This document shows, in pieces, positions 6,584-27,624 of a stretch of 29,351 nucleotides of DNA; within the stretch, counting starts at the first letter, position 1, and every line of letters begins with the position of its first letter. Location: the UHGV virus genome UHGV-0299584; one strand, written 5' to 3'. The position numbers and the translations under genes were made by a program. The notes beneath the pieces are model-generated. The model did not search any database. It was not told the origin of the DNA and saw only the letters and a list, made by a program, of their open reading frames with translations. This DNA comes from a virus.

Positions 6584-7495
6584 ATGGACCAAACCACCGA
6601 CATTCAGGCTTCTGAAGAATTAACCCTGCCCGGCAATCATGCAGCGGCATCTGCTGATGGCTTAGTTGTCGATAATGCCAACGACATCGCAGGTCAGGAA
6701 GAAGGCTTCGAGATTGTCCTGAAAGACGATGAGAAACCAAAACAAGACCCGGCAACTAATGCTGAATTTGCCCGTCGCCGCATCGAACGCAAACGCCAGC
6801 GTGAGCTTGAGCAGCAGATGGAAGCGGTTAAGCGTGGAGAGTTGCCGGAGCACCTGCGGGTGAACCCTGAGTTACCAAAACAACCAGACCCTAACGATTA
6901 TCTTTCCGAAGATGCACTGGCTAAGTACGACTATGACCAGAGCCGCGCACTGGCTGCCTTCCAGCAGGCAAACAGTGAATGGCAGATCAAGGCTATGGAC
7001 GCACGAAGCCAGGCTGTCGCCGAGCAGGGTCGCAAAACTCAGGAGTTCACCCAGCAATCAGCGCAATACGTCGAGGCAGCCCGTAAGCACTACGACGCAG
7101 CGGAAAAGCTCAATATCCCTGACTATCAGGAGAAAGAGGATGCATTCATGCAACTGGTGCCGCCAACAGTCGGTGCCGATATCATGCGCCTCTTCCCGGA
7201 GAAATCCGCTGCTCTCATGTATCACCTTGGTGCTAATCCTGAGAAAACACGCCAGTTGCTGGCGATGGACGGGCAATCCGCGCTGATTGAACTCACTCGA
7301 CTGTCAGAACGTTTAACTCTCAAGCCTCGAGCCAAGCCTGTTTCAGAAGCCCCGTTACCTGATGAACCCATTCAGGGACATGCTGTTGCTGCAAATATCT
7401 CTGCGATTGAAAAGCAGATGGAGGCGGCAGCAAACAAAGGGGATGTAGAGACGTACCGCAAGCTCAAGGCGCAACTGAATAAAGGAATTCGATAA
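6584..7495 (+). CDS. Scaffolding protein (P22 gp8-like)
   Basis: 303 aa, same length as P22 gp8, with conserved C-terminal coat-binding helix-turn-helix region (...[18 protein letters not shown]). Confidence 0.92.
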
Positions 7496-8017
7496 TTATT
7501 TCGATATCGTGATGTTGTTTTCCTCGTCAAACTTTCTGATTACTTCTTTCGCCTCTTCGAATGAAGAACATACTTTTTGCACTCTTGCATTAAGCAGTCG
7601 CTTATGAGCGATCCATCTTTTCCGCGTGTTGCAAAAGTAAACTCCAGATATTCCGCTGGAGTTATTTTTAGATAGTTTGATTCTATTCCTTTGGTTTGCT
7701 GATTTTTTCACAAGACGAAGATTTTCAATTCTGTTGTCGTGGCGAATCCCATTTATATGGTCAATTTCCATGCCTTCTGGAATATCTCCGTTAAACATTA
7801 CCCATACGATGCGGTGTGCTAGCCACTTAATGCCGTTAATTCTTATGCGGATATATCCATTGCTTTCTAAAAGACCAGCAACTTTTCCAGCGTGTTTTGC
7901 ATTCCAAACGTTGTGATAGTTGCGATTCTTTTTGTTGTTGAAAAATTCAGAGCTTCTGGCTTTCCAAACCAAAGAACCATCGCGGTATTCGAAGTATTCA
8001 TTCAGTTCCATGCTCAT
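7496..8017 (-). CDS. Free-standing HNH homing endonuclease
   Basis: 173-aa product contains the HNH core EIDHINGIRHDNRIENLRLV plus a C-terminal basic region (GISGVYFCNTRKRWIAHK) resembling the DNA-binding modules of phage homing endonucleases. Antisense to the late operon, AT-rich by eye; its stop abuts the scaffold stop. Confidence 0.8.
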   Translation of the reverse strand: MSMELNEYFEYRDGSLVWKARSSEFFNNKKNRNYHNVWNAKHAGKVAGLLESNGYIRIRINGIKWLAHRIVWVMFNGDIPEGMEIDHINGIRHDNRIENLRLVKKSANQRNRIKLSKNNSSGISGVYFCNTRKRWIAHKRLLNARVQKVCSSFEEAKEVIRKFDEENNITISK

Positions 8018-8084: not shown

Positions 8085-9380
8085 ATGACTCTCAAAGAAG
8101 GGCAGTTAGTTACTTACGCTATCGATGAAATCATCGAAACCGTCCAGAACCTGACGCCAATGGCGTCCAAAGTGACAAAATACACCCCTCCGGCAGAATC
8201 CATGCAACGTTCAAGCAACACCGTGTGGATGCCTGTTGAGCAGGAAGCGCCAACTCAGACTGGCTGGGATTTAACTGGCAACGCAACCGGGATTCTGGAA
8301 CTCTCCGTGAAGTGCAACATGGGCGATCCGGATAACGATTTCTTCGAGCTTCGTGCAGATGACCTGCGTGATGAGCGTTCTTACCGTCGCCGCATCCAGG
8401 CATCCGCCAAAAAACTGGCGAATAACATTGAGTCAGCAATTGCCAAACAGGCAACCGAAATGGGCTCACTTGTTGTTCACGATACCAGCGCAATTGGTCC
8501 ATCTACTGGCCTGTCTGGCTGGGATTTTGTGTCTGATGCAGAGCGACTGATGTTCTCCCGCGAACTCAACCGCGACATGGGTATCAGTTACTTCCTGAAC
8601 CCTGACGATTACCGCAAAGCAGGCCGCAATCTTGTAGATGGTGACATCTTCGGGCGCGTTCCTGAAGATACGTATCGCAACGGTACTATTCAGCGTCAGA
8701 TTGCTGGCTTTGATGAAATTCTTCGCTCACCGAAACTTCCGGCAGTTACCAAGTCAACCGCTACTGGTGTAACTGTTTCTGGCGCGCAGAAGTTTAAGCC
8801 GCAGGCATACACCCTTGATACCGATGGTAACAAAGAGAACGTCGACAACCGTGTTGCAACGGTGACCGTATCCTCCACCACCGGATTTAAGCGCGGCGAC
8901 AAAATCAGTTTCACTGGTGTGAAATTCCTGTCTCAGATGGCGAAGAACGTGCTGACTGATGATGCAACTTTCTCAATCACCCGTGTGATCGATAGTACTC
9001 ACATCGAAATCACGCCGAAGCCGATTGCACTGGATGACGCGTCACTGACAAAAGAAGAGAAGGCTTACGCTAACGTAAACACCTCTCTTGCTGATACCAC
9101 TCCGGTAAACGTTCTGAACGTGGCAACAACCACCGCTAACGTGTTCTGGGCTGATGACTCAATCCGCCTTCTGTCTCAGCCGATCCCGGTAACCCATGAA
9201 CTGTTTGCTGGCATGAAAACGTCTTCCTTCAGCATTCCTGGTATTGGTGTTAACGGCATCTTCGCAACGCAGGGTGATATCAACACTCTGTCTGGTAAGT
9301 GCCGTATTGCTGTGTGGTATTCAGCATGTGCTGTACGACCAGAAGCAATTGGTGTTGGTCTGCCTAATCAGACCGCGTGA
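8085..9380 (+). CDS. Major coat protein (P22 gp5-like)
   Basis: 431 aa; sequence tracks the P22 coat protein along its length by recollection (e.g. ...[12 protein letters not shown]..., ...[11 protein letters not shown]..., C-terminal [14 protein letters not shown]). Confidence 0.95.
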
Positions 9381-10174: not shown

Positions 10175-11593
10175 ATGCCGATTCAGCAACTTCCGCTTAT
10201 GAAAGGTGTCGGCAAAGACTTTCGAAACGCCGACTATATCGACTATCTGCCAGTGAATATGCTGGCTACACCCAAAGAAATCCTGAACAGCAGCGGATAT
10301 CTTCGCTCATTCCCTGGCATTGCCAAACGCTCTGATGTGAACGGTGTATCTCGCGGCGTCGAGTACAACATGGCGCAGAATGCTGTTTATCGCGTGTGTG
10401 GTGGCAAACTGTACAAAGGAGAAAGCGAAGTCGGTGACGTCGCCGGAAGTGGTCGCGTATCAATGGCGCATGGTCGAACATCACAGGCGGTAGGTGTTAA
10501 TGGTCAACTGGTCGAGTATCGCTATGATGGCACGGTTAAAACAGTCTCAAACTGGCCTACAGACAGCGGATTCACTCAGTATGAGTTAGGTTCGGTTCGC
10601 GACATTACGCGTTTACGTGGGCGTTATGCGTGGTCAAAAGACGGAACTGATTCATGGTTTATCACTGACCTTGAAGACGAATCACATCCTGACCGTTACA
10701 GCGCACAATATCGCGCAGAATCGCAGCCTGACGGCATCATTGGCATCGGAACATGGCGAGACTTCATCGTCTGTTTTGGTTCATCGACGATTGAGTATTT
10801 TTCCCTGACTGGTGCAACTACCGTTGGTGCCGCTTTGTATGTTGCACAACCATCGCTGATGGTGCAGAAAGGTATTGCCGGGACTTACTGCAAAACGCCG
10901 TTTGCTGATTCGTATGCGTTCATCAGCAATCCGGCAACGGGTGCGCCGTCTGTATACATCATCGGATCAGGTCAGGTATCACCAATCGCCAGCGCGAGCA
11001 TTGAGAAAATCCTCCGCTCCTACACTGCTGATGAACTGGCTGATGGCGTGATGGAATCTCTGCGATTTGATGCGCATGAGCTTCTGATTATCCATCTTCC
11101 GCGCCATGTTCTGGTGTACGACGCATCTTCAAGCGCCAATGGTCCGCAATGGTGTGTGTTGAAAACTGGCTTGTATGACGATGTGTACCGCGCTATCGAC
11201 TTCATTTACGAAGGCAATCAGATAACGTGCGGCGATAAGCTGGAATCTGTTACCGGGAAACTGCAATTCGACATCAGCAGCCAGTACGACAAGCAACAGG
11301 AACACCTGCTGTTTACTCCGTTGTTCAAAGCGGATAACGCCAGAGTTTTCGACCTTGAAGTTGAATCGTCAACTGGCGTTGCGCAGTACGCCGACCGCCT
11401 TTTTCTCTCTGCAACCACTGACGGCATCAATTACGGACGTGAGCAGATGATTGAGCAGAATGAACCGTTCGTTTACGACAAACGCGTTTTGTGGAAGCGA
11501 GTTGGGCGCATCAGGAAAAATGTCGGCTTCAAATTGCGTGTTATCACTAAGTCACCTGTCACTCTGTCAGGCTGCCAGATAAGGATCGAGTAA
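10175..11593 (+). CDS. Tail accessory / head completion protein (P22 gp10-like)
   Basis: 472 aa, same length as P22 gp10; conserved order after gp4. Confidence 0.88.
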
Positions 11594-12546
11594 TGGCTGA
11601 TTCGAATCTCAATGAGCCGGTAATCATTCAGGCTACACGACTCGACACATCAGTCCTTCCACGCAATATCTTCTCGCAGTCGTATCTGCTTTACGTTATC
11701 GCACAGGGCACTGATGTTGGTAACGTGGCTAACAAGGCCAACGAAGCAGGGAAGGGGGCTTATGATGCACAGGTGAAGAATGATGAGCAGGATGTCATCC
11801 TTGATGACCATGAATCCAGAATTGAAGCTGCTGAAGCAACTCTCATCAATCATGAACATAGAATTGCAGCAGCGGAAAGCACTCTTGCAGATCATGAAAC
11901 AAGGATTACGGCTGCCGAAACAGAGCTGGCTGATCACGAGACGCGAATTGCTGCCAATGAATCTGAGTTAGCAAACCATGATGCGCGAATAACTCAGAAT
12001 ACAGCCGATATCGGCGCACTTGATACCAGGCTCACAGCGGCAGAGGGAAGTATTTCGACGCTACAAAGCACAGTTGGTGATCACTCAACAAGAATATCTG
12101 CGCTTGAGTATGCCACCACGCGCAAGAAATCAGAGGTTGTTTACTCAGGACTATCGGTAACCATCCCGACAGCGCCGACCAACCTTGTTAGCCTGCTGAA
12201 AACGCTCACGCCGTCATCCGGCACGTTGGCACCATTCTTCGACACCGTTAACAACAAGATGGTTGTGTTCAACGAGAACAAAACCCTGTTCTTCAAGCTG
12301 TCGATTGTCGGGACGTGGCCCAGCGGAACCGCCAACAGGTCAATGCAGCTAACCTTTTCCGGCTCTGTTCCTGACACACTTGTGAGCAGTCGTAATGCGG
12401 CGACAACAACCGACAACATCCTGTTAGCTACGTTCTTCAGCGTGGATAAAGACGGCTTTCTTGCCACAAATGGCAGCACGTTAACCATTCAGTCGAATGG
12501 TGCGGCGTTTACTGCTACAACCATCAAAATCATTGCGGAGCAGTGA
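11593..12546 (+). CDS. Tail needle (P22 gp26-like) with extended coiled coil and C-terminal knob
   Basis: N-terminal ~60 aa ([27 protein letters not shown]...[13 protein letters not shown]) resemble the gp10-binding tip of P22 gp26. Followed by 11-residue-periodic DHExRIxAAE repeats and a ~140-aa beta-rich C-terminal domain, as in Sf6-type needles. Confidence 0.8.
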
Positions 12547-13025
12547 TGGAAATAAAGCTCATCGATAATCCGGTGAAGCTTGCAGAATTCCTCAACAACC
12601 CGGCAAACACGGGAAATATCGTAGACAGTGGAGATAAATACTACATCAAGCCTGATGCGGTATATCTCGGCATCTACGAAGGATTAGTGCTGGCTGGGGT
12701 TCATGAAGTGCGTAACTTCTGGCATAGCGTTGTTGAATGCCATGCTGTGTACGACCCCGGATTCCGTGGCGAATATGCACTGCAAGGGCATCGATTATTC
12801 TGCAAATGGCTTCTCGAAAACTCACCATTCCTTAACAGCATCACCATGGTTCCTGACACCACCAAATACGGACGGGCAATTATCCGTTTGCTTGGCGCTA
12901 CCCGTGTTGGTCACCTTGATGATGCTTATACCAGCAATGGAAAGCCTGTAGGCATCACGATTTATCAGTTACCGCGCTCAAAATACGAGGAGCTAAAGAA
13001 TGTTAATTTTCCAGATTGCCAATAA
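12546..13025 (+). CDS. Putative gp14-like ejection/assembly-associated protein (position-based)
   Basis: 160-aa ORF in the gp14 position; ATG overlaps the needle stop (TGATG). Confidence 0.5.
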   Translation: MEIKLIDNPVKLAEFLNNPANTGNIVDSGDKYYIKPDAVYLGIYEGLVLAGVHEVRNFWHSVVECHAVYDPGFRGEYALQGHRLFCKWLLENSPFLNSITMVPDTTKYGRAIIRLLGATRVGHLDDAYTSNGKPVGITIYQLPRSKYEELKNVNFPDCQ

Positions 13026-13653
13026 GCACCTCAGCAAAGCTGTTTACTGCAAAGGCGGCAGTGATGGCGGTTCAAAAGCCCAGGCACGCGCAACTGAAAA
13101 GGGTATCGAATTGCAGCGTGAAATGTGGCAAACGAACATGCAAAACCTCGCACCGTTCACGCCACTCGCTCAACAGTACGTATCAGAGTTGCAGAATCTT
13201 TCCTCTCTTCAGGGGCAAGGTCAGGCGCTTAACCAGTATTACAACTCCCAGCAGTACAAAGACCTTGCTGGTCAGGCGCGTTACCAGAGTCTGGCAGCAG
13301 CAGAGGCAACTGGTGGATTAGGCTCTACAGCAACAGGAAACCAGTTAGCATCAATCGCACCTACACTCGGTCAAAACTGGCTGTCAGGTCAGATGAACAA
13401 CTACAACAATCTGGCAAATATCGGCCTTGGTGCTCTTACAGGTCAGGCAAACGCCGGACAGAACTACGCTAACAACGTCAGCCAATTGTATCAACAGCAG
13501 GCGGCAGCATCTGCGGCTAATGCGAATAAACCATCAGGATTTCAGAGCGCCTTGAGTGGAGCGGCAGCAGGTGCAGCTGCAGGTACTGCAATCATGCCTG
13601 GTTGGGGTACAGCAATTGGTGCTGGCGTCGGTCTTCTTGGTTCACTTTTTTAA
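13000..13653 (+). CDS. Ejection protein (P22 gp7-like)
   Basis: 217 aa, Q/N/A-rich with a Gly/Ala-rich hydrophobic C-terminus (AAGAAAGTAIMPGWGTAIGAGVGLLGSLF); GAGG RBS. Confidence 0.7.
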   Translation: MLIFQIANKHLSKAVYCKGGSDGGSKAQARATEKGIELQREMWQTNMQNLAPFTPLAQQYVSELQNLSSLQGQGQALNQYYNSQQYKDLAGQARYQSLAAAEATGGLGSTATGNQLASIAPTLGQNWLSGQMNNYNNLANIGLGALTGQANAGQNYANNVSQLYQQQAAASAANANKPSGFQSALSGAAAGAAAGTAIMPGWGTAIGAGVGLLGSLF

Positions 13654-13665
13654 TGGAGGTGTCTC

Positions 13666-14967
13666 TTGGCTACATGGCAACAGGCTGGTAATTCAGGCGC
13701 GCTTCTTGCCGGGTTAGGCGGCATGAACTCCAACGCTCCAAGAGCAAGTGATGCAGACGCCACACTTGCATACATTCGACAGAATAACGAGATGGAGCGT
13801 TCAGGACGTAATAACGTTGGCTTGCAGGCTTTGCAGGGCATTTCATCTGTCATGGATATGTATAAGCAGATGGATCAGCAGAAGCGGCAGCAAGAGTTTC
13901 AGCAGGCTTATGCTGATGCATATACATCTGGTGACCGCGATGCAATGCGAAAACTGGCATCACAGTATCCTGAGCAGTTTGACGCTGTAAGAAACGGCAT
14001 GAAATTTGTCGATGAAGACCAGCGTTCCACTGTCGGTACACTGGCAGCAAGTGCCAGACTCGCAGCTTCATCTCCAGAAGCCATGATGTCATGGTTGCAG
14101 AACAACTCATCTGAGCTTACTCGTGCCGGAGTAGACCCTCTGGATGTGGCGAAAATGTATCAGCAAAATCCACAAGGTTTCACAGAGTTTGTTGATCACC
14201 TTGGAATGGCTGCACTTGGTCCGATTGATTACTTCAATGTTCAGGACAAGATGGCTGGTCGTGAGATTGACCGAGGTAGGCTGGCAGAGACAATCCGCAG
14301 CAATCAGGCTGGCGAGGCACTAACAGCACGAGGTCAGGACATCCAGATACGTGGCCAGAACATCAGCGTACAGAATGCTGCTCTTTCCCGCAAAATACAA
14401 AGAGCAGAATTACAAGAAAAGGCTCTGGACAGACAGATAGCCAGAGAAAGCAATCAGTTAAAGCTTGAAGAGCTAAAGCAGAAACAGGCAGATGTTCGGC
14501 AAAAGGCTGAAATAGCTCGTGCTGACAGACAGGCCGCCGCTCAGGGCGCTGTTGATACGTTCAGCACTGCGCTTGATTCTCTCAACGAGATAGAGCAAAG
14601 CCCTGGACTTTCAAAAGCAGTTGGTATTCGCTCAGCGTTTCCGACAGTTCCTGGATCTGATGCGGCTAACTTTGAAGCAAGACTCGACACCTTTAAAGCT
14701 CAAACTTTCCTCCCTATGGTGCAGTCCCTGAAGGGGATGGGGGCTCTTTCAGATGCTGAGGGTAAAAAATTATCCGATGCGGTTGGTGCTCTAAGTCCCA
14801 AAATGAGTGAAAAGGCTTTTCGTGACTCTATCGGAAAGATTCGAAATCAGCTTGAAAGCAAGTTGAGCACTGTTAAAAAACAGTTTGATTACCAGGAGCC
14901 GGTGCAGAATACGCCAGGACAACAATCTCCTGCTGGCAGTAATTTTTCTTCACTATGGGGTGATTAA
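13666..14967 (+). CDS. Ejection protein (P22 gp20-like)
   Basis: 433 aa; TTG start preceded by a strong GGAGG RBS; stop overlaps the next ATG (TAATG). Confidence 0.75.
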   Translation: MATWQQAGNSGALLAGLGGMNSNAPRASDADATLAYIRQNNEMERSGRNNVGLQALQGISSVMDMYKQMDQQKRQQEFQQAYADAYTSGDRDAMRKLASQYPEQFDAVRNGMKFVDEDQRSTVGTLAASARLAASSPEAMMSWLQNNSSELTRAGVDPLDVAKMYQQNPQGFTEFVDHLGMAALGPIDYFNVQDKMAGREIDRGRLAETIRSNQAGEALTARGQDIQIRGQNISVQNAALSRKIQRAELQEKALDRQIARESNQLKLEELKQKQADVRQKAEIARADRQAAAQGAVDTFSTALDSLNEIEQSPGLSKAVGIRSAFPTVPGSDAANFEARLDTFKAQTFLPMVQSLKGMGALSDAEGKKLSDAVGALSPKMSEKAFRDSIGKIRNQLESKLSTVKKQFDYQEPVQNTPGQQSPAGSNFSSLWGD

Positions 14968-16964
14968 TGGCTAAAGCATGGAAAGATGTTATCGCCTCTC
15001 CACAGTATCAGGCGTTAGCACCAGAACAAAAAGCGCAGGCTCAGGAGCAATACTTCAATGAAGTCGTGGCCCCGCAAGCCGGAGAAAATGCAGAGCAGGC
15101 TAAGCAAGCTTTCTATGCTGCCTATCCATTGCCATCTGTGCAGCAAGTGGAGACACAGCAACCAGTAGCACAGCAACAACCACAGCAAAGTGGATTTATG
15201 TCTGATCTTGGCGAAGCAGTAAAAGAGACTGGTCGCGGACTGGTGCAGGCTGGCGTGAACGTGGCAAACATACCTGCATCAGTTGCCGATGCTGTAACAA
15301 GTGCGGCTGCATGGGCTGGCGGTAAACTCGGCATTGGCGATGGTACATATCAACCAGCGCCACGAGTAACAACGCAGGGATTAGAGCAGGACTTTGGCCT
15401 TCAGCAAGGCGCGCTGACTCCACAAACGACAGAGGGCAGGGTGTTTGCTGAAGCATTGCCTTACCTCACTCCTGCTGGCGTTGAGAGAGCGGCAACACTG
15501 GCACCAACACTTGCTGGTCGAATTGCTCAGGGGGCAACTCGCCTTCTCGCAGAAAACGCAGTTGGATCACTTGCTGCAAACAGTGCGAAAGATGATGCGG
15601 AAGCACTCGCCACCGATTTAGGCGTTGGTGTGCTGGCTGGCGGTGCTATTAACGCTGCCGGACGTGGATTAGGTGCTGCTTATCGTGGTGTTCGTGGTTC
15701 GATAGCACCAGAAGCGCAACAGGCTATCAGATTTGCAGAGCGTGAAGGAGTTCCTCTGCACACCACAGACCTGTTACAACCAACTTCCCGCGTCGGAAAA
15801 ATGGCGCAGACTACAGCAGAAAATATCCCTCTGGCTGGCACAAGCGGAATGAGAGCAACGCAACAGGAAGCGAGAAGCCAGTTGGTGCAGAGATTTGCTG
15901 ATAAATTCGGCGAGTACGATCCGGCAGTTGTTATTGACAGCCTTAAAGCGAAAACATCAGGAATTCGTCGTGCTGCTGGGAACCGTCTTGAGCAGGTACA
16001 GAATGCAATGGCAGGAATCAACATTCAACCTGCCAGAGCAATTCAGCAGATAGATACTGAGATATCTAACCTGCAGAAGCTTGGTAAGGTCGCTGATAAC
16101 GAGACGATTTCAAAACTTCAATCCTATCGTGATGAGCTTGTTCGCAATGCTGGCCCTGATGGTCCGGTAAATCTGGATTTGAAGCAATTAAGCGACCTGC
16201 GCAGTCAGTTCAGAATGGACGTGAAGGGTGAGCGACCAGTGTTACCAAACCGTTCCGATGCCGCCATTCAGCGCGTTTACAAGGCGATGACCGACGATAT
16301 CAATGGTGCCATTGGTCAGAATCTTGGCAACGATACTCTCCGTAAATATCAGCAGGCCAATGCCGTCTACGCTGACGAAGCGGCGAAACTCAAGAATACC
16401 AGGCTGAAGAATGTTCTCATGAAAGGCGATCTGACGCCGGAAGTTGTCAACAACATGCTATTCAGCAAGAACAAATCGGAAATTAAGACGCTGTATAACT
16501 CAGTTGGTCGTGTTGGCAGGACGCAAATGCGCAATGGCATCATTGGAAAGGCGATGGAGAAATCTGGCGGATCCCCTGACCAGTTCCTTCGGCAGCTTAA
16601 CATCCTGCAAAACCAGACTGGCATCACATTTAAGGGGCAGGACGCTGCTTATCTGAAGGGATTAAAAAACTACCTGCAATCCACGCAGCAGGCTGCAAAA
16701 GCGGCAGTAACAACCCCCACAGGGCAGCAAACCATCCCGTTCATTATCGGGTATGGGACGGCAATGAACCCGGCGACAACTGGCGCAGCAGTAAGCTACG
16801 GACTTCTTACTCGCGCCTATGAGAGCGAGCCATTCAGAAATGCAATGCTCCGAATGGCAAACACCCCACGCGGATCAACAGCGTTTGAGAAAGCCATGCA
16901 GCAGGTACAAAAGGCAATTAACGCCCTGACTCAGGGAGCTAAGTCTGATGCGTTGTCAGAATAG
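14967..16964 (+). CDS. Ejection protein (P22 gp16-like)
   Basis: 665 aa, last of the four-gene ejection block before the tailspike; Ala/Gly/Gln-rich. Confidence 0.8.
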   Translation: MAKAWKDVIASPQYQALAPEQKAQAQEQYFNEVVAPQAGENAEQAKQAFYAAYPLPSVQQVETQQPVAQQQPQQSGFMSDLGEAVKETGRGLVQAGVNVANIPASVADAVTSAAAWAGGKLGIGDGTYQPAPRVTTQGLEQDFGLQQGALTPQTTEGRVFAEALPYLTPAGVERAATLAPTLAGRIAQGATRLLAENAVGSLAANSAKDDAEALATDLGVGVLAGGAINAAGRGLGAAYRGVRGSIAPEAQQAIRFAEREGVPLHTTDLLQPTSRVGKMAQTTAENIPLAGTSGMRATQQEARSQLVQRFADKFGEYDPAVVIDSLKAKTSGIRRAAGNRLEQVQNAMAGINIQPARAIQQIDTEISNLQKLGKVADNETISKLQSYRDELVRNAGPDGPVNLDLKQLSDLRSQFRMDVKGERPVLPNRSDAAIQRVYKAMTDDINGAIGQNLGNDTLRKYQQANAVYADEAAKLKNTRLKNVLMKGDLTPEVVNNMLFSKNKSEIKTLYNSVGRVGRTQMRNGIIGKAMEKSGGSPDQFLRQLNILQNQTGITFKGQDAAYLKGLKNYLQSTQQAAKAAVTTPTGQQTIPFIIGYGTAMNPATTGAAVSYGLLTRAYESEPFRNAMLRMANTPRGSTAFEKAMQQVQKAINALTQGAKSDALSE

Positions 16965-17128: not shown

Positions 17129-18790
17129 ATGACAGACATTACAGCCAATGTTGTAGTGAGTATGCCTTCGCAACTCTTCACTATGGCGCGTTCTTTTAAA
17201 GCGGTTGCCAATGGCAAAATTTATATCGGTAAAATTGACGCTGACCCGGTAAATCCTGAAAACCAGATTCAGGTTTATTTAGAGAACGAAGACGGCTCTC
17301 ACGTTCCTGTATCGCAACCAATCATCATTAACGCTGCTGGTTACCCGGTATATAACGGACAGATCGCCAAATTCGTTACTGTACATGGCCATTCTATGGC
17401 TGTTTATGATGCGTACGGTGCTCAGCAGTTCTATTTTCCTAATGTGCTGAAGTACGATCCCGATCAGCTTAGATCACAGATAGAATACGGGCAGTATATT
17501 CACATTCCTGATGGTTATTCACATTATGATGAGTTTGATAATATTCCTCTGAATATATTGGGTGTGGATTATAGTCCTGTTAATGTATATGATGTTTCTT
17601 ATGATGTGTTGACTGGTATATTTAAAGTTTCTGTTCAGAATGCAGATAATTTTCATGTTGGTAAATATTGTATACTTTCTGGCAGGAGAGACATTTCATG
17701 TGGAGCGATGATAATTTCCAAGGATGGAAATGTTTTAACATTGGATATGAGTCACAATGGTATAATTTCAGGCCCGGTTAACGGGGTTGTGGCAAAACCA
17801 ATAAATTCCATAATAAAAACAACAAAAGGAATACAATTTAGATCAAATATATACAGCATAAAAAATGTTGCTATTGAAACAGATGGTGATTACGGACTCA
17901 TTATCGGAGGTGGATACTACCCTGATTCACAATGTGGTAGTTGCGTAGTTTGGGATGCAAACAATTTAATTGTAAATGGAGGCTCTGTTTGTGGAGTTCT
18001 TGTTTCTGGCTCTGGATCTCAGTTTTGTATCAATGAAGTTCATATTACTAACGCAAATATTTCGCTGGAATGTATTTACGCAGCTAGCGTGAAAGGTTTT
18101 TCATTTTCATCATACAATTCAAATGAAGACTCAATTAAGGTTGAGCATGCTTCATCTTGCTATATAAAAGAATTGTCAATTATAAAACCGAAAACTCAGT
18201 CTTGCGTAGCGGCTCGTTATTCATCATCTGTAGAGATATCTGATTGTTATATGGTTGGAAGTGAAGGTTCAGCATTTGCTACCAGCCAATTTTCCTCATA
18301 TTTATCATTAAGAAATATTGTTATGCTAGGGAGCGCAAAATATGCGATAAACTGCGTCGATGGTGCTGTTGTCGCAATAAATAATATCGACGCCTCTTTA
18401 GCTAAAGTGGATTATGGGGTAAGGGTTGAAAAACACTCAGTTTTAAGACAGGTAGGTATAAATAGCAATTTTTCAGGTTCTATTGCCGATTCGCTAATAA
18501 ATAACTCTCATGTTGATTTCAATGATATCGTGTTTTCTGGGAAAAAAATTAAATCAACAATTAATGTTGGTTCAATTAATCCAAACTCTAGATTTTCAAT
18601 TCAGAGGGTAGCTACTGGATATAAAATAGAAAATGAACTTCCAATCAATATGACGGTGTTAGGAGATCTGCCAATAGGGGTTATAACTGATGTATTGGCA
18701 ATATCAGACGACATGATTCGTGTTACATTCCAAAACACTAGCTCATCACCTGTTGATGTTGGCAGTGTTGATGTCATTATAGGATGGTAA
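17129..18790 (+). CDS. Tailspike: conserved head-binding domain fused to a divergent beta-helix receptor-binding domain
   Basis: First ~115 aa ([34 protein letters not shown]...VLKYDPDQ) match the P22/Sf6/HK620 head-binding domain as recalled. The remainder is AT-rich, Ser/Asn/Ile/Gly-rich and shows no recognisable similarity to P22 gp9. GGAG RBS. Confidence 0.85.
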
Positions 18791-18875: not shown

Positions 18876-19469
18876 TTATAGTAATCGCCTATCCCATTTC
18901 ACACCTGTTTTGATTATTTTTGCTGGAGTACCAGCAATAATAATATTGCTTTCAGAAAATTTACCAGTTACAGTTGCCCTTGCGCCAACAATAGTTTCAT
19001 CTGGAATAAAGGCACCTTTCATGATGAGCGCATCAAGACCAATCCAGCACTTATCTCCTATTGATATGTTTTTTGCTGGATTTATCCTGTTTCCATCCAT
19101 ATCTGTTATTGAATGTGAGTCTGTTGTTCTTATTTGAACGCCTGACGCAAACATGCAATTAACACCAATTGAAACACTAGTCCCCTCTTGAATGTTTATA
19201 TTGGTGTTCTGAAAGCTTGTAAGGCTTGATATCACGAGACAGTTCCCATCGCCTCTCATATTTACAGAGCCAACTATAGAACACCTCTCACCGATATTAA
19301 TAGTATTATTATCACCATTTATCAAAATGGATAAATTATGTATTTTTGCATGCTTTTCTATATTTATATGATTGTTCTTTCCATTAATGCGAATAGATAT
19401 TTTTTTTATGTCAGCATCAACATGATTTATAGAGTTATTTTCTCCGGAAATCTGTTTTATTATATCCAT
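18876..19469 (-). CDS. Hexapeptide-repeat (left-handed beta-helix) acetyl/acyltransferase, moron
   Basis: Product shows periodic [LIV]-G-x4 hexads (INIGERCSIVGSVNMRGDGNCLVISS..., ISIGDKCWIGLDALIMKGAFIPDETIVGARATVTG) typical of the LacA/WcaF/CysE-type family. AT-rich; sits between tailspike and int. ATG 19469 preferred over TTG 19481. Confidence 0.7.
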   Translation of the reverse strand: MDIIKQISGENNSINHVDADIKKISIRINGKNNHINIEKHAKIHNLSILINGDNNTINIGERCSIVGSVNMRGDGNCLVISSLTSFQNTNINIQEGTSVSIGVNCMFASGVQIRTTDSHSITDMDGNRINPAKNISIGDKCWIGLDALIMKGAFIPDETIVGARATVTGKFSESNIIIAGTPAKIIKTGVKWDRRLL

Positions 19470-19783
19470 CACTATACTCAATTATTTTGATTGATTTATT
19501 TACAACTTATTAATGTATATGTCATAAATTATATCATAATTTTAATAAAAATCAATATACGAGGTTTTGCATGTATATATTGTAATTTATTGCATATGTT
19601 GATAATAAATTTTATTTGATGCTTAACATAATTATCATGAAATTAGTTATTCAATAACTCTTGTTTTTTAATGTGACAATCACGTTGCTTATATTTAATA
19701 ATGAAACTATATGGTTTTATTATTAAATTTGTGTTTACCTAGATGAATTAATTGTTTTATTTATGATTTTTATCATGGAATCA

Positions 19784-20941
19784 TTAATCCACCTTTTCAT
19801 CAACCCAATCCGCCCACCACTGCATCATTTCTCTGCGCTTATCGAGATACTGAGCATGGTTGTAAATCCCGCGCACAGATCCGCCGTTGGCATGTGCCAG
19901 TTGCGCTTCAATAGCATCAGCAGGCCATTCGTGCTCGTTCATAATCGTGCTGAATTCATGCCTGAATCCGTGACCGCTTTCCAGACCCTCATAGCCGATT
20001 TGTTTGATCACAAGTAGCACCGCGTTCTCGCAGATTGGCTTTTTCTTATCGTTGCGCCCGGCAAAAACAAACTCTGATACTGGTTTGGTGATTGAACTTA
20101 GCGTAGTGAGAAGTTCAACTACCTGGTCTGACATAGGAACCACATGAATTTTGCGTCCCTTCATCACACTGGCGTCGATGGTGATAATCCTGTTTTCAAA
20201 ATCGACGTTCTTCCATAGCATGGAACGAAGCTCTTTCGTTCTTAGGGCTGTGTAGCGTAAAACTTTGGTCGCAATGAGCGATACGATACTTCCTGAAAAT
20301 GTTGCCAGTGCTTTGTTGAATGCCGGGATCTGGTCTGCAGGAAGAAACGGGAAGTTCTTCTTGCGGTATCCCTTCATGGCGTCAGCAAGGTCAGGTGCCG
20401 GGTTATATTTAGCCCTACCAGTGACAATAGCGTAACGGAAAACCTCGCCGCATCTTCTGCGGGCTTTGTTGGCTCGCTCCATTGCACCGCGATCTTCAAA
20501 TCTGCGGATTACTTCCAGTAGTTGCATCGGCTCAATATCCTGAATTTCAAGACCGCCGATGATGGGTAAAATGTCGTCATCAAACATTTTTGCAAGTTCA
20601 TTTGCATAGCCTACTGACCAGACTTGCTTCTTGTGCTCGTACCATTCCTTGTAAATGGCGCTAAAGGAATTGTTGTTAGACGAAGCCTTTTTCGCCTTTA
20701 CCGGATCGATGCCAACCGAGATGTCTTTCCTCGCAGTCCATGCTTTATCCCTTGCCTCTTGCAAAGTCATAAGCGGATATTTTCCGACGGTCAGTATTTT
20801 CTCCTTACCGTCAATCTTGTAGCGAAGCTGCCATACCTTTTTCCCTGACACAGGGACATAAAGGTACAGGCCATTACCATCGAGTAGGCGGTATGGTTTT
20901 TCTTTCGGTTTTGCTGCTTCAATCTGCTTAACGGTGAGCAT
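19784..20941 (-). CDS. int: Tyrosine integrase (P4-like family)
   Basis: Product has the typical N-terminal arm (LTVKQIEAAKPKEKPYRLLDGNGLYLYV) and C-terminal catalytic region (...HGFRHEFSTIM..., ...RGIYNHAQYLDKRREMMQWWADW). Start ATG 20941, or GTG 20977 as in the ORF track. Confidence 0.9.
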   Translation of the reverse strand: MLTVKQIEAAKPKEKPYRLLDGNGLYLYVPVSGKKVWQLRYKIDGKEKILTVGKYPLMTLQEARDKAWTARKDISVGIDPVKAKKASSNNNSFSAIYKEWYEHKKQVWSVGYANELAKMFDDDILPIIGGLEIQDIEPMQLLEVIRRFEDRGAMERANKARRRCGEVFRYAIVTGRAKYNPAPDLADAMKGYRKKNFPFLPADQIPAFNKALATFSGSIVSLIATKVLRYTALRTKELRSMLWKNVDFENRIITIDASVMKGRKIHVVPMSDQVVELLTTLSSITKPVSEFVFAGRNDKKKPICENAVLLVIKQIGYEGLESGHGFRHEFSTIMNEHEWPADAIEAQLAHANGGSVRGIYNHAQYLDKRREMMQWWADWVDEKVD

Positions 20942-20986
20942 GGGTAAAAATCCGGTGGGTAAAATTATTTTATCCACTTTTTACCC
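20942..20986. repeat. Cluster of TTTTACCC / GGGTAAAA octamers (putative arm-type Int-binding sites)
   Basis: GGGTAAAA at 20942-20949 and 20957-20964; TTTTACCC at 20979-20986, read directly. Confidence 0.4.
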
Positions 20987-25049: not shown

Positions 25050-25433
25050 TCAGAATGGGATGGAATCGTCGTATACAGGAGTGTTCTGCTGGTTACTACT
25101 TTGCTGCTGCGGGCTGTTTCCTGAAGTTGCAAATCCAATCTTTGCATTCAGTAATTCAAGAGTGATTGATTGACCATTTTGCCCCTGATAAACATCAACC
25201 CTGATGTTTTCTCCGGTAATTTCCACAATTCCACCTTCAACAAGAACACTACGGTAGTAATCCGCTTGCGCTCCCGGCTTGGCAAATACAACGGCGCTGT
25301 AGTTTGCCCATTCTTTCTTTTTTGTCTGGCGATCGTAATACTGAACGCCAGCACGGATGTTGAATCCGATATTTTCCCCGGCCTGAAACTCTCTTGCGGG
25401 CTTGTTTAGTCTTACAGTAATCGAATGTGCCAT
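25050..25433 (-). CDS. ssb: Single-stranded DNA-binding protein (phage SSB)
   Basis: 127-aa product from ATG 25433 (MAHSITVRLNKPAREFQ...) with a Gln-rich linker and the acidic SSB tail ...YDDSIPF (compare E. coli SSB DDDIPF). Start overlaps the erf stop (TAATG). Confidence 0.7.
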   Translation of the reverse strand: MAHSITVRLNKPAREFQAGENIGFNIRAGVQYYDRQTKKKEWANYSAVVFAKPGAQADYYRSVLVEGGIVEITGENIRVDVYQGQNGQSITLELLNAKIGFATSGNSPQQQSSNQQNTPVYDDSIPF

Positions 25434-26038
25434 TAAGCAGCCGCTCCTTCTAATTCGTCTCGTCTGATGTTGTAAACGTCCTGCGCTTTGTGCTGCTCCG
25501 GTGTGCCTTCGAGCATCTTCCACGCTTTGGCGAACGCCTGTTTAAGCTCTTCCACGGTGTTTTTCTGCATTGCTGCGTCAGTGAATGCTTTTAGAACCTG
25601 TTCAGGTGTAGGTGATGGGTTTGATTGCTTTGCTGCTGCGTTCTGCTGATGTTTATGCTCGTCTGTATCTGCATCTTTCGCATCATCAATGCCGAATAAA
25701 CCATTGAGGCAATACTTGCGTGCATAAGAGCTTGTAGCTCCCGTAACTTGTGCAGAATCCATTCCTTTCTTGCTTTCTTCCTCTCGTGCAAGAGCGGTTG
25801 CCGTATGACTGTTTTCGCCATCGGTAATAGTTGCCGTGGCTTTCACGTAATACCGATCACCAATCAACACAACTTCATCGCTGATTGATAAAAACAGGCC
25901 ATTCAGTAACGGCTTAACACCCTCAAGAATGTCTTCGCAGCTTCTGTATTTATATTTGCCGAATGAGTTGTATTGATTCTTTGGCGCGTTCAGATTCTCC
26001 TGAATAGCTGCCAGTCTTGCGTAAAATTCTTTGCTCAT
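25433..26038 (-). CDS. erf: Erf-family single-strand annealing recombinase
   Basis: Product from ATG 26038 (MSKEFYARLAAIQENLNAPKNQYNSFGKYKYRSCEDILEGVKPLLNGLFLSISDEVVLIGDRYYVKATATITDGENSH...) matches P22 Erf as recalled. Confidence 0.85.
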   Translation of the reverse strand: MSKEFYARLAAIQENLNAPKNQYNSFGKYKYRSCEDILEGVKPLLNGLFLSISDEVVLIGDRYYVKATATITDGENSHTATALAREEESKKGMDSAQVTGATSSYARKYCLNGLFGIDDAKDADTDEHKHQQNAAAKQSNPSPTPEQVLKAFTDAAMQKNTVEELKQAFAKAWKMLEGTPEQHKAQDVYNIRRDELEGAAA

Positions 26039-26139
26039 ATGATTGTTCTCAGAATGGACATGGACCAAGGAAATAACGCTGATTTAATACTTCTACTCGG
26101 GACAAATTAAGGCATACCCGCATTCCTTCGCGGTCGCCA

Positions 26140-26673: not shown

Positions 26674-26699
26674 CAAAAATAAAGGCCGACTATGCGGCC
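26674..26699 (-). terminator. Putative intrinsic terminator after the 207-aa gene
   Basis: - strand reads GGCCG-catagt-CGGCC followed by TTTATTTTTGG; the gene's stop codon lies in the loop. Confidence 0.45.
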
Positions 26700-27313
26700 T
26701 CGGAAGGAAGTCCAATCATCTTATTCAAATCTTCTACCCGTAAAGCAGGAAGTGCTGTACTTGCTTTATCTGCTTCTTTTGGTAGCAACTCTTTGCTTTC
26801 AGGCCAAACTTCAATAAGTCGCTTAACTGTTGTGACTGAGTTCAAAGCAGCCCATACATTTGATTCGATATCCTTTTTCTTGGCTTCAAGTTTTTGTTGC
26901 AATGCGCAGATTTCATCAAACCTTTTTGTTATTTCGTGTTCTGCGTCAAACATGCATTTATCTTTTTCTGGGGTGGGGAGCAATATATCTTCACCGTTGC
27001 CGTCTTTTCCGTATGAATGCCAGCCAACTCTTCTGCCAGATACAGTCAGATAAATTGAAGCAAAACGAACATCGCATGAGTAAAATGAACATCCCAGTTT
27101 TTCAAGTTCTTCACTTATAGCTACTAACTTGGATGATAACTGATCCACTTCCTCAGTTTTCTTTTTACCGCCAAACGCAATAACTCTGGCGTCAAGTGCA
27201 AGCTGGTTCTTTAACTTTATTACTTCTTCAAGTTCAGTGAAAACCCCAGACTTAATTAAAGCGTTACGAGCGATTTCCTCTTTCATTCTCGTAGTTAAGC
27301 GGATTGATGACAT
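26690..27313 (-). CDS. Unrecognised 207-aa protein, AT-rich, between N and cIII
   Basis: ATG 27313 with GAGAGGAA RBS, 11 nt after the N stop. No transmembrane segment or motif I recognise. Visibly lower GC than flanking genes (not computed). Confidence 0.6.
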   Translation of the reverse strand: MSSIRLTTRMKEEIARNALIKSGVFTELEEVIKLKNQLALDARVIAFGGKKKTEEVDQLSSKLVAISEELEKLGCSFYSCDVRFASIYLTVSGRRVGWHSYGKDGNGEDILLPTPEKDKCMFDAEHEITKRFDEICALQQKLEAKKKDIESNVWAALNSVTTVKRLIEVWPESKELLPKEADKASTALPALRVEDLNKMIGLPSEAA

Positions 27314-27324
27314 ATTAATTCCTC

Positions 27325-27624
27325 TCAAATAAGTGGTTTGCTGCCTAATTTCATTTTCTGGCGACCAACACAAGTCACACCTATTTCACTGCGTGGCTTG
27401 CTGTAGTAAATACGGTTCTGTTTACGCTCGACTTCTTCTGCCTTCTTGCAGCGAAGGCTTCCGAGTGATGCTGCTTTATCTGCTCTGACGCAACCAGAGA
27501 GCTTTAGCGAAATTTTTCGCGCCAGTCGCTGCTCTTGCATTGCCTGTTCACGTTGAGCCTGTCTGCGTGCTCTGCGGCGATTTCTGGCGTTATCGTCAGC
27601 CAGATATGTAATGACTACTGTCAT
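27325..27624 (-). CDS. N: N-family transcription antiterminator
   Basis: 99-aa product with an N-terminal arginine-rich motif (NARNRRRARRQAQREQ). C-terminus NRIYYSKPRSEIGVTCVGRQKMKLGSKPLI matches lambda N (RTWYSKPGERGITCSGRQKIKGKSIPLI) as recalled. GGAGG RBS. Confidence 0.8.
   Translation of the reverse strand: MTVVITYLADDNARNRRRARRQAQREQAMQEQRLARKISLKLSGCVRADKAASLGSLRCKKAEEVERKQNRIYYSKPRSEIGVTCVGRQKMKLGSKPLI

Follow-up and report, generated by a model that had tools for sequence, protein, structure and literature searches.

A 16-heptad tail needle with an Sf6-type knob, of the known HS1 subtype, in a P22-like Escherichia coli phage genome

The gene at 11593..12546 on the plus strand of UHGV virus genome UHGV-0299584 (the window, i.e. 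the whole stretch of 29,351 nucleotides analysed) almost certainly encodes a tail needle, presumably trimeric like its homologues, and belongs to a P22-like (Lederbergvirus) E. coli phage. This needle is of the HS1 subtype, which has already been described, and nothing in the sequence speaks against this reading. The open reading frame is intact and codes for 317 amino acids. As judged from sequence comparisons, the gene is the orthologue of P22 gene 26, Sf6 gene 9 and EcHS_A0316 of prophage HS1. The protein and the HS1 needle of E. coli HS (EcHS_A0316/WP_000785558.1, 317 aa, at 35116-36069 of the HS1 prophage locus) are identical at 307 of 317 residues (97%) and align with no gaps. They share the length, the 16-heptad shaft, the repeat layout, the knob and the flanking gene order, as well as the glutamate-site residues, A305 and S169. 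The ten substitutions (window residue first) are E8V, K54Q, K62R, I69T, D71A, D100E, A107D, G141D, L187V and A269S, and only those at residues 187 and 269 fall in the knob. In contrast, the phage around the needle is a different mosaic from HS1, with a tailspike of 553 aa in the window and of 636 aa in HS1.

The HS1 needle was described by Leavitt et al. (2013; PMC3741392) as a protein of 317 aa with 16 shaft heptads, compared with 11 in Sf6 and P22, and with a helical core predicted to be 210 Å long. Compared with Sf6, the N-terminal domain shows 98% and the knob 99% identity. The HS1 knob was solved at 1.1 Å (PDB 4K6B); the structure has three L-glutamates bound where the subunits meet, and a phosphate on its tip (PMC3741392). 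The exact protein sequence of the window is present in NCBI as "tail needle knob protein" on 37 contigs, and its 90%-identity cluster has 1430 members, the HS1 protein ABV04705.1 among them. At the DNA level, the needle gene is 98.6% identical to that of phage vB_EcoP-720R6 over its full length. Full-length DNA matches were also found in phages JEP4 and Gally, and among 5426 complete E. coli genomes 164 gave such a match; homologues of the needle occur in roughly 950 E. coli genomes. The needle of the window is already known, as the HS1 type has been published and many database entries exist for the identical protein. The published 317-aa, 16-heptad form, part of which is structurally solved, went unrecognized in the first-pass annotation of this DNA.

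The genes around the needle are arranged as follows:

10175..11593, plus strand: tail hub gene of the P22 gp10/Sf6 gp8 family (PF11134, E=1.8e-301)
11593..12546, plus strand: tail needle gene (317 codons and TGA, from the list of open reading frames)
12543 (start of the open reading frame) to about 13025, plus strand: gp14-like DUF2824 gene (Pfam PF11039)
13000-13653, plus strand: gp7-like ejection-protein gene (Pfam PF25688)
13666-14967, plus strand: gp20-like ejection-protein gene (Pfam PF16928)
14967-16964, plus strand: gene in the gp16 position, assigned by position only
17129..18790, plus strand: tailspike gene, 553 aa (P22-type head-binding domain PF09008 at residues 1-113, E=3.1e-66)

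This order (gp10, needle, gp14, gp7, gp20, gp16, tailspike) is canonical, and the same order surrounds the needle in Sf6, 720R6 and HS1. The start codon of the needle gene overlaps the stop codon of the tail hub gene (TAATG), and at the other end its own stop codon shares bases with the start of the next gene (TGATG); the true start of the DUF2824 gene is likely the ATG at 12546. The Pfam search with the 14967-16964 open reading frame gave no match. The E. coli phage records nearest to the window, among them Louie, IME10, Dewey and vB_EcoP-720R6, match 34-58% of its first 24 kb at about 95-97% identity. The DNA of the window is that of a P22-like (Lederbergvirus) E. coli phage with an intact DNA-delivery module, as the needle gene, a complete example of a well-studied virion part, confirms. 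A defective or pseudogenized needle gene was considered and rejected because the open reading frame is intact, has the HS1 length and encodes a protein found in identical form on 37 contigs.

Within the needle gene, the following parts were delimited:

11593..11772, plus strand: N-terminal domain, about residues 1-60 (boundary approximate), from similarity to Sf6 gp9, HK620 gp26 and P22 gp26 structures
11773..12108, plus strand: coiled-coil shaft, residues 61-172, 16 heptads, from the heptad register and the AF2 helix; presumably trimeric, as in homologues
11806..12015, plus strand: five tandem 14-residue (42-nt) units, from repeat spacing and autocorrelation
12016-12057, plus strand: degenerate sixth 14-residue unit
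12112..12543, plus strand: knob, residues 174-317, a TNF-like jellyroll, from PF16532, similarity to 4k6b/3rwn and Foldseek; presumably a trimer, as in homologues

Several searches agree on the C-terminal knob. Residues 136-317 matched Pfam PF16532 (Phage_tail_NK, "Sf6-type phage tail needle knob") with E=2.7e-107 and 356 bits against a cut-off of 27. In the PDB sequence search, residues 165-317 showed about 98% identity to two knobs of known structure, 4k6b (HS1) and 3rwn (Sf6 gp9), with E~1e-89. The AF2 model contains a beta domain with strands over residues 179-316, whose best Foldseek matches were again 4k6b and 3rwn (TM 0.86-0.87); the more distant Foldseek matches of the knob were TNF/C1q-like trimers such as BclA, EDA-A1 and PRD1 P5. 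The first-pass annotation had proposed an Sf6-type needle with a distal knob, formed by a beta-rich C-terminal domain of about 140 aa. The domain family, the similarity to 4k6b and 3rwn and the longer coiled-coil shaft bear this out: the C-terminus is a folded knob of about 145 aa, neither disordered nor helical, which the structure prediction places next to the Sf6 knob. The residues that contact L-glutamate in the solved knob (E181, K235, S283, D285, L290 and K312; residue list from PMC3741392) are all present, as are the S266-R267-N268 phosphate triad, A305 and S169 named in the same paper. The knob is predicted to bind L-glutamate at the subunit interfaces.

The way in which such a needle works can be proposed from work on P22, Sf6 and HS1 (PMC3741392, PMC9728967), by analogy with which the protein would be a homotrimer in the virion, would plug the tail channel and would be released at infection. 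The geometry of the needle plug in the tail hub is taken from the cryo-EM structure of Sf6 (PMC9728967). According to that structure, the three chains would form a quasi-sixfold plug of N-terminal helical hairpins in the channel of the hexameric hub, and the coiled-coil shaft would project the knob beyond the tailspikes. Upon adsorption, after processing of the O-antigen by the tailspikes, the needle would be released, and the ejection proteins encoded just downstream would then follow together with the DNA. The knob would tune the rate of DNA delivery rather than the choice of host.

The opposite view of the knob, that it is a receptor-binding domain which decides the host species and that the longer shaft serves to reach the receptor, must be weighed against this. 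A TNF/C1q-like fold is common to receptor-binding proteins such as PRD1 P5 and to lectins, and all knob-type needles known in 2013 came from phages of Escherichia and Shigella, with none among 48 Salmonella P22-like phages (PMC3741392). However, P22 chimeras carrying the HS1 or the Sf6 knob infect Salmonella at normal efficiency, and a needle tipped with a foldon still gives viable phage, whereas changes of the needle tip alter the kinetics of K+ release (PMC3741392). The authors of that study thought it unlikely that the tip contributes to host specificity and regarded a part in delivery kinetics as supported. Needles of 282 and 317 aa, moreover, each pair with dozens of unrelated tailspike types (see below). 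A receptor-binding knob is consequently very unlikely in our view, and the suggestion in the first-pass annotation that the needle may bear on host specificity runs against the published infections with swapped knobs (PMC3741392). The kinetic role of the knob, as proposed from its homologues, is the reading that we retain.

The shaft was found to be built of double heptads. Five similar 11-mers lie at residues 72-82, 86-96, 100-110, 114-124 and 128-138 (nt 11806-12006), with a spacer of 3 residues after each of them (TLI, TLA, ELA, ELA and DIG, respectively), so that the repeat unit is 14 aa or 42 nt, that is, two heptads. A further DHSTRI motif is found at residues 163-168, one extra heptad downstream of the units. 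The nucleotide autocorrelation over 11780-12020 peaked at lag 42 with 0.568, followed by lag 84 with 0.510 and lag 21 with 0.432; in codon-shuffled controls it was 0.310±0.033, which places lag 42 about 8 SD above them. The repeat search returned start-to-start spacings of 42, 42 and 42. Tandem Repeats Finder run on the open reading frame with a minimum score of 30 reported nothing, because DNA identity between the units amounts to only 50-64%. In protein, the first four units are 57-79% identical.

The heptad register was carried on from the NxxQD motif of P22 gp26, in which N occupies an a and Q a d position (PMC13580157) and which corresponds to N63, Q66 and D67 of the window needle. In this register, the a positions are N63, L70, I77, L84, I91, L98, I105, L112, I119, L126, I133, I140, L147, I154, V161 and I168, and the d positions are Q66, H73, A80, H87, A94, H101, A108, H115, N122, H129, N136, L143, A150, L157, H164 and L171. 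In 15 of the 17 heptads between residues 58 and 176, one and the same heptad position holds an aliphatic residue. The 14-residue unit is a double heptad with the core L(a)-H(d)-I(a)-A(d), and there are six layers with histidine at position d. The AF2 model, a monomer built from a 15-sequence alignment and of low confidence at residues 1-40, shows one continuous helix over residues 42-175. The PDB search results contained no full-length structure of a 16-heptad needle, and the geometry of the shaft, including that of the six histidine layers, is given here as a prediction for that reason: the 16 heptads would form a parallel three-stranded coiled coil about 200 Å long.

An 11-residue/33-nt repeat would imply a hendecad coiled coil and a differently supercoiled fibre, for which the existence of five similar 11-residue strings could be taken to speak. 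This can practically be dismissed: the strings are spaced 14 residues apart (42 nt in the DNA), the autocorrelation at lag 33 in 11780-12020 is at background (0.284 against 0.309±0.032 in the shuffled controls) when that at lag 42 is 0.568, the protein autocorrelation is 0.10 at lag 11 and 0.39 at lag 14, and the aliphatic core residues recur every 7 residues. The pattern is that of a canonical heptad coiled coil with a 14-residue super-repeat. All five 11-mers quoted in the first-pass annotation are thus present, but they are not consecutive, and the 33-nt periodicity read from them gives way to a peak at lag 42. The corrected description, a 14-residue double heptad with alternating His and Ala d layers, is a useful point of this analysis.

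In the N-terminal part of the protein, residues 1-68 are nearly invariant in the alignment with Sf6 gp9 and HK620 gp26, so the conserved N-terminal tip was correctly noticed in the first pass. Residues 1-142 matched P22 gp26 structures at E~1e-41 in the PDB sequence search (2poh, 3c9i, 4zkp and 8eap, the match to 8eap covering residues 1-62). By analogy, the N-terminal domain would plug the channel of the hexameric tail hub. The needles of P22 and HK620 (233 aa; PDB 2POH, 3C9I and 5BU5) share this plug and the proximal coiled coil with the window needle, together with the polar core motif NxxQD and the DHExRI motifs, but they are devoid of the knob and shorter, as had been anticipated (317 aa against 233 aa for PDB 2poh and HK620 gene 26). 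The C-terminal tip of P22 gp26 (2POH) is a triple beta-helix followed by a short inverted coiled coil. No homology to this tip (P22 residues 141-233) was found at the C-terminus of the window protein, where HK620 gp26 gave no meaningful alignment. That the protein is a P22-type needle with such a tip, merely extended by repeats and lacking a globular knob, might be suggested by the match of residues 1-142, but the probability is negligible, since the PDB matches to the P22 and HK620 needles cover only residues 1-142 and end within the shaft, the overall identity of 46% with HK620 gp26 stems from the N-terminal part alone, and the C-terminus is a PF16532 domain about 98% identical to solved knobs.

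The difference in length from other knobbed needles lies in the shaft. Bhardwaj and co-workers reportedly determined the structure of the Sf6 gp9 knob (PDB 3RWN) in 2011. Sf6 gp9, from a Shigella phage, has 282 aa, a nearly identical N-terminal plug and a nearly identical knob of the same fold; the alignment with the window needle showed 90% identity over the aligned columns and was interrupted only in the shaft, by one gap of 28 residues and one of 7. The window needle has 16 heptads where Sf6 has 11, the 28 + 7 residues making up five heptads, which at ~1.5 Å per residue for 35 residues would add about 50 Å of shaft. Among the best 120 homologues, the common lengths were 254, 268, 282, 289, 296, 303, 310, 317, 331, 338 and 345 aa, which correspond to 7 to 20 shaft heptads (254-345 aa) when scaled to 11 heptads for Sf6 (282 aa). 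Of the 108 sequences in which both motifs were found, all but four have a distance from the NDEQD motif to YATTRK at the knob start that equals 5 modulo 7. In the alignment of representatives, the length variants differed by clean blocks of 7, 14, 28 or 49 residues gained or lost, such as a 28-residue duplication in the 345-aa homologue P0001 and two extra 28-residue units in the 338-aa homologue P0052. The range quoted in 2013 was 11-16 shaft heptads (PMC3741392). A span of 7 to 20 widens it modestly and is not a new kind of feature.

Needle length was compared with the tailspike in 100 non-redundant needle/tailspike pairs, nearly all of them drawn from loci in IMG/VR, a set which is dominated by needles of 282 and 317 aa and carries no phylogenetic correction. 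Tailspikes paired with needles of 282 aa (n=53) had a median length of 664 aa, and those paired with needles of 317 aa (n=44) one of 690 aa (Mann-Whitney p=0.17). The receptor-binding parts of the tailspikes fell into 73 clusters, several of which pair with both needle lengths. The idea that the length of the needle follows the length or type of the tailspike was rejected at this resolution (282 against 317 aa in 100 pairs), given the p value and the mixed clusters. The needle is another mosaic module, with no detectable coupling of the 282- and 317-aa forms to the tailspike. The IMG/VR scans made with the 254-aa and 303-aa variants yielded almost only genes for 282- and 317-aa needles and a single 254-aa gene, and a scan of genome contigs with two N-terminal patterns yielded 5 loci.

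The number of heptads in knobbed needles might be a fast-changing trait under selection rather than the outcome of neutral drift of repeats. It would then set how far the knob projects beyond the tailspikes and be tuned to a property of the envelope, such as the depth of the O-antigen or capsule, or to delivery kinetics, and the six layers with histidine at d might act as a pH or metal switch for release. We regard this as unlikely, the idea being weakened by the fact that 282- and 317-aa needles show no link to tailspike length or type.

The effect of the shaft on the kinetics of DNA delivery was left open by Leavitt et al. (2013; PMC3741392), and the quantized natural series of 7 to 20 heptads is a ready set of variants for relating length to these kinetics. 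An elongated needle has also been engineered: the P22 gp26 fibre of PDB 4LIN (300-aa chain) was likewise lengthened, by duplicating part of the helical core, and the phmmer alignment of the 4lin chain shows this repetition, with DDHESRITANTKAITALNVRVTTAEGEIASLQTNVSALDGRVTTAEN in both matched stretches. The 4LIN fibre is artificial and ends in the P22 tip, whereas the window needle combines a natural lengthening of the shaft with a knob.

The knobbed needles related to that of the window come in quantised lengths. Among its 120 best homologues (P0001-P0120), the shortest has 254 aa and the longest 345 aa, with lengths that differ by whole heptads (7 to 20 heptads), and a comparison of these homologues showed that the length variants arose by clean duplication or deletion of repeat blocks of 7, 14 or 28 residues. 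This range exceeds the 11-16 heptads given for knobbed-needle shafts in 2013 (Leavitt et al. 2013; PMC3741392). At that time, knob-type needles were known only from Escherichia and Shigella phages (PMC3741392). Five of the homologues (P0063, P0066, P0067, P0070 and P0099), which are knob-type needles of 316-317 aa with 72-78% identity to the window needle, carry the source names Klebsiella aerogenes, Serratia marcescens and Serratia fonticola. A match also occurs in the record of Klebsiella phage phiKp_30.

According to the heptad register, the needle shaft (window 11773-12108, residues 61-172) has histidine at core position d in six layers (H73, H87, H101, H115, H129 and H164), and in the first four 14-residue units histidine at d alternates with alanine at d. 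In the aligned sequences, the corresponding shaft stretch contains the motif DH[ED]xRI once in the P22-type needle HK620 gp26 and four times in the knobbed Sf6 gp9. No discussion of such histidine layers was found in the cited tail-needle literature; a pH- or metal-dependent role is speculative.

At both of its junctions, the needle gene shares stop and start codon bases with its neighbour (TAATG and TGATG), a pattern typical of translational coupling. The ORF call of the gp14-like DUF2824 gene begins at GTG 12543; the annotated start of its orthologues in phage vB_EcoP-720R6, Sf6 and the HS1 prophage overlaps the stop codon of the needle gene by one base, the equivalent in the window being ATG 12546 (TGATG).

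In the head-gene module, a gap of ~590 bp, with the scaffold gene (6584-7495) on one side and the coat gene (8085-9380) on the other, holds the following ORF on the opposite strand:

7496-8017, minus strand, 172-aa ORF, HNH_3 endonuclease domain (E=3.9e-22)

A search of 50,697 phage records found the same insert only in Escherichia phages Dewey and Louie (99.5-99.8% identity), where it is annotated as an HNH endonuclease. The ORF looks like a free-standing homing endonuclease which invaded the head-gene module in a few P22-like phages.

The tailspike gene is directly followed by a 200-aa ORF and then by the integrase gene:

17129-18790, tailspike gene
18876-19481, minus strand, 200-aa ORF without a Pfam match
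19784-20977, minus strand, integrase gene

The window contains neither a bacterial flank nor a tRNA. The layout suggests that the sequence has the unintegrated permutation of a phage genome and is not an integrated prophage.

In the early-left region, an ORF with a nucleotide modification associated domain 5 (Nmad5) adjoins the ERF recombinase gene:

25433-26068, ERF recombinase gene
26690-27373, minus strand, Nmad5 ORF (domain match E=1.5e-69)
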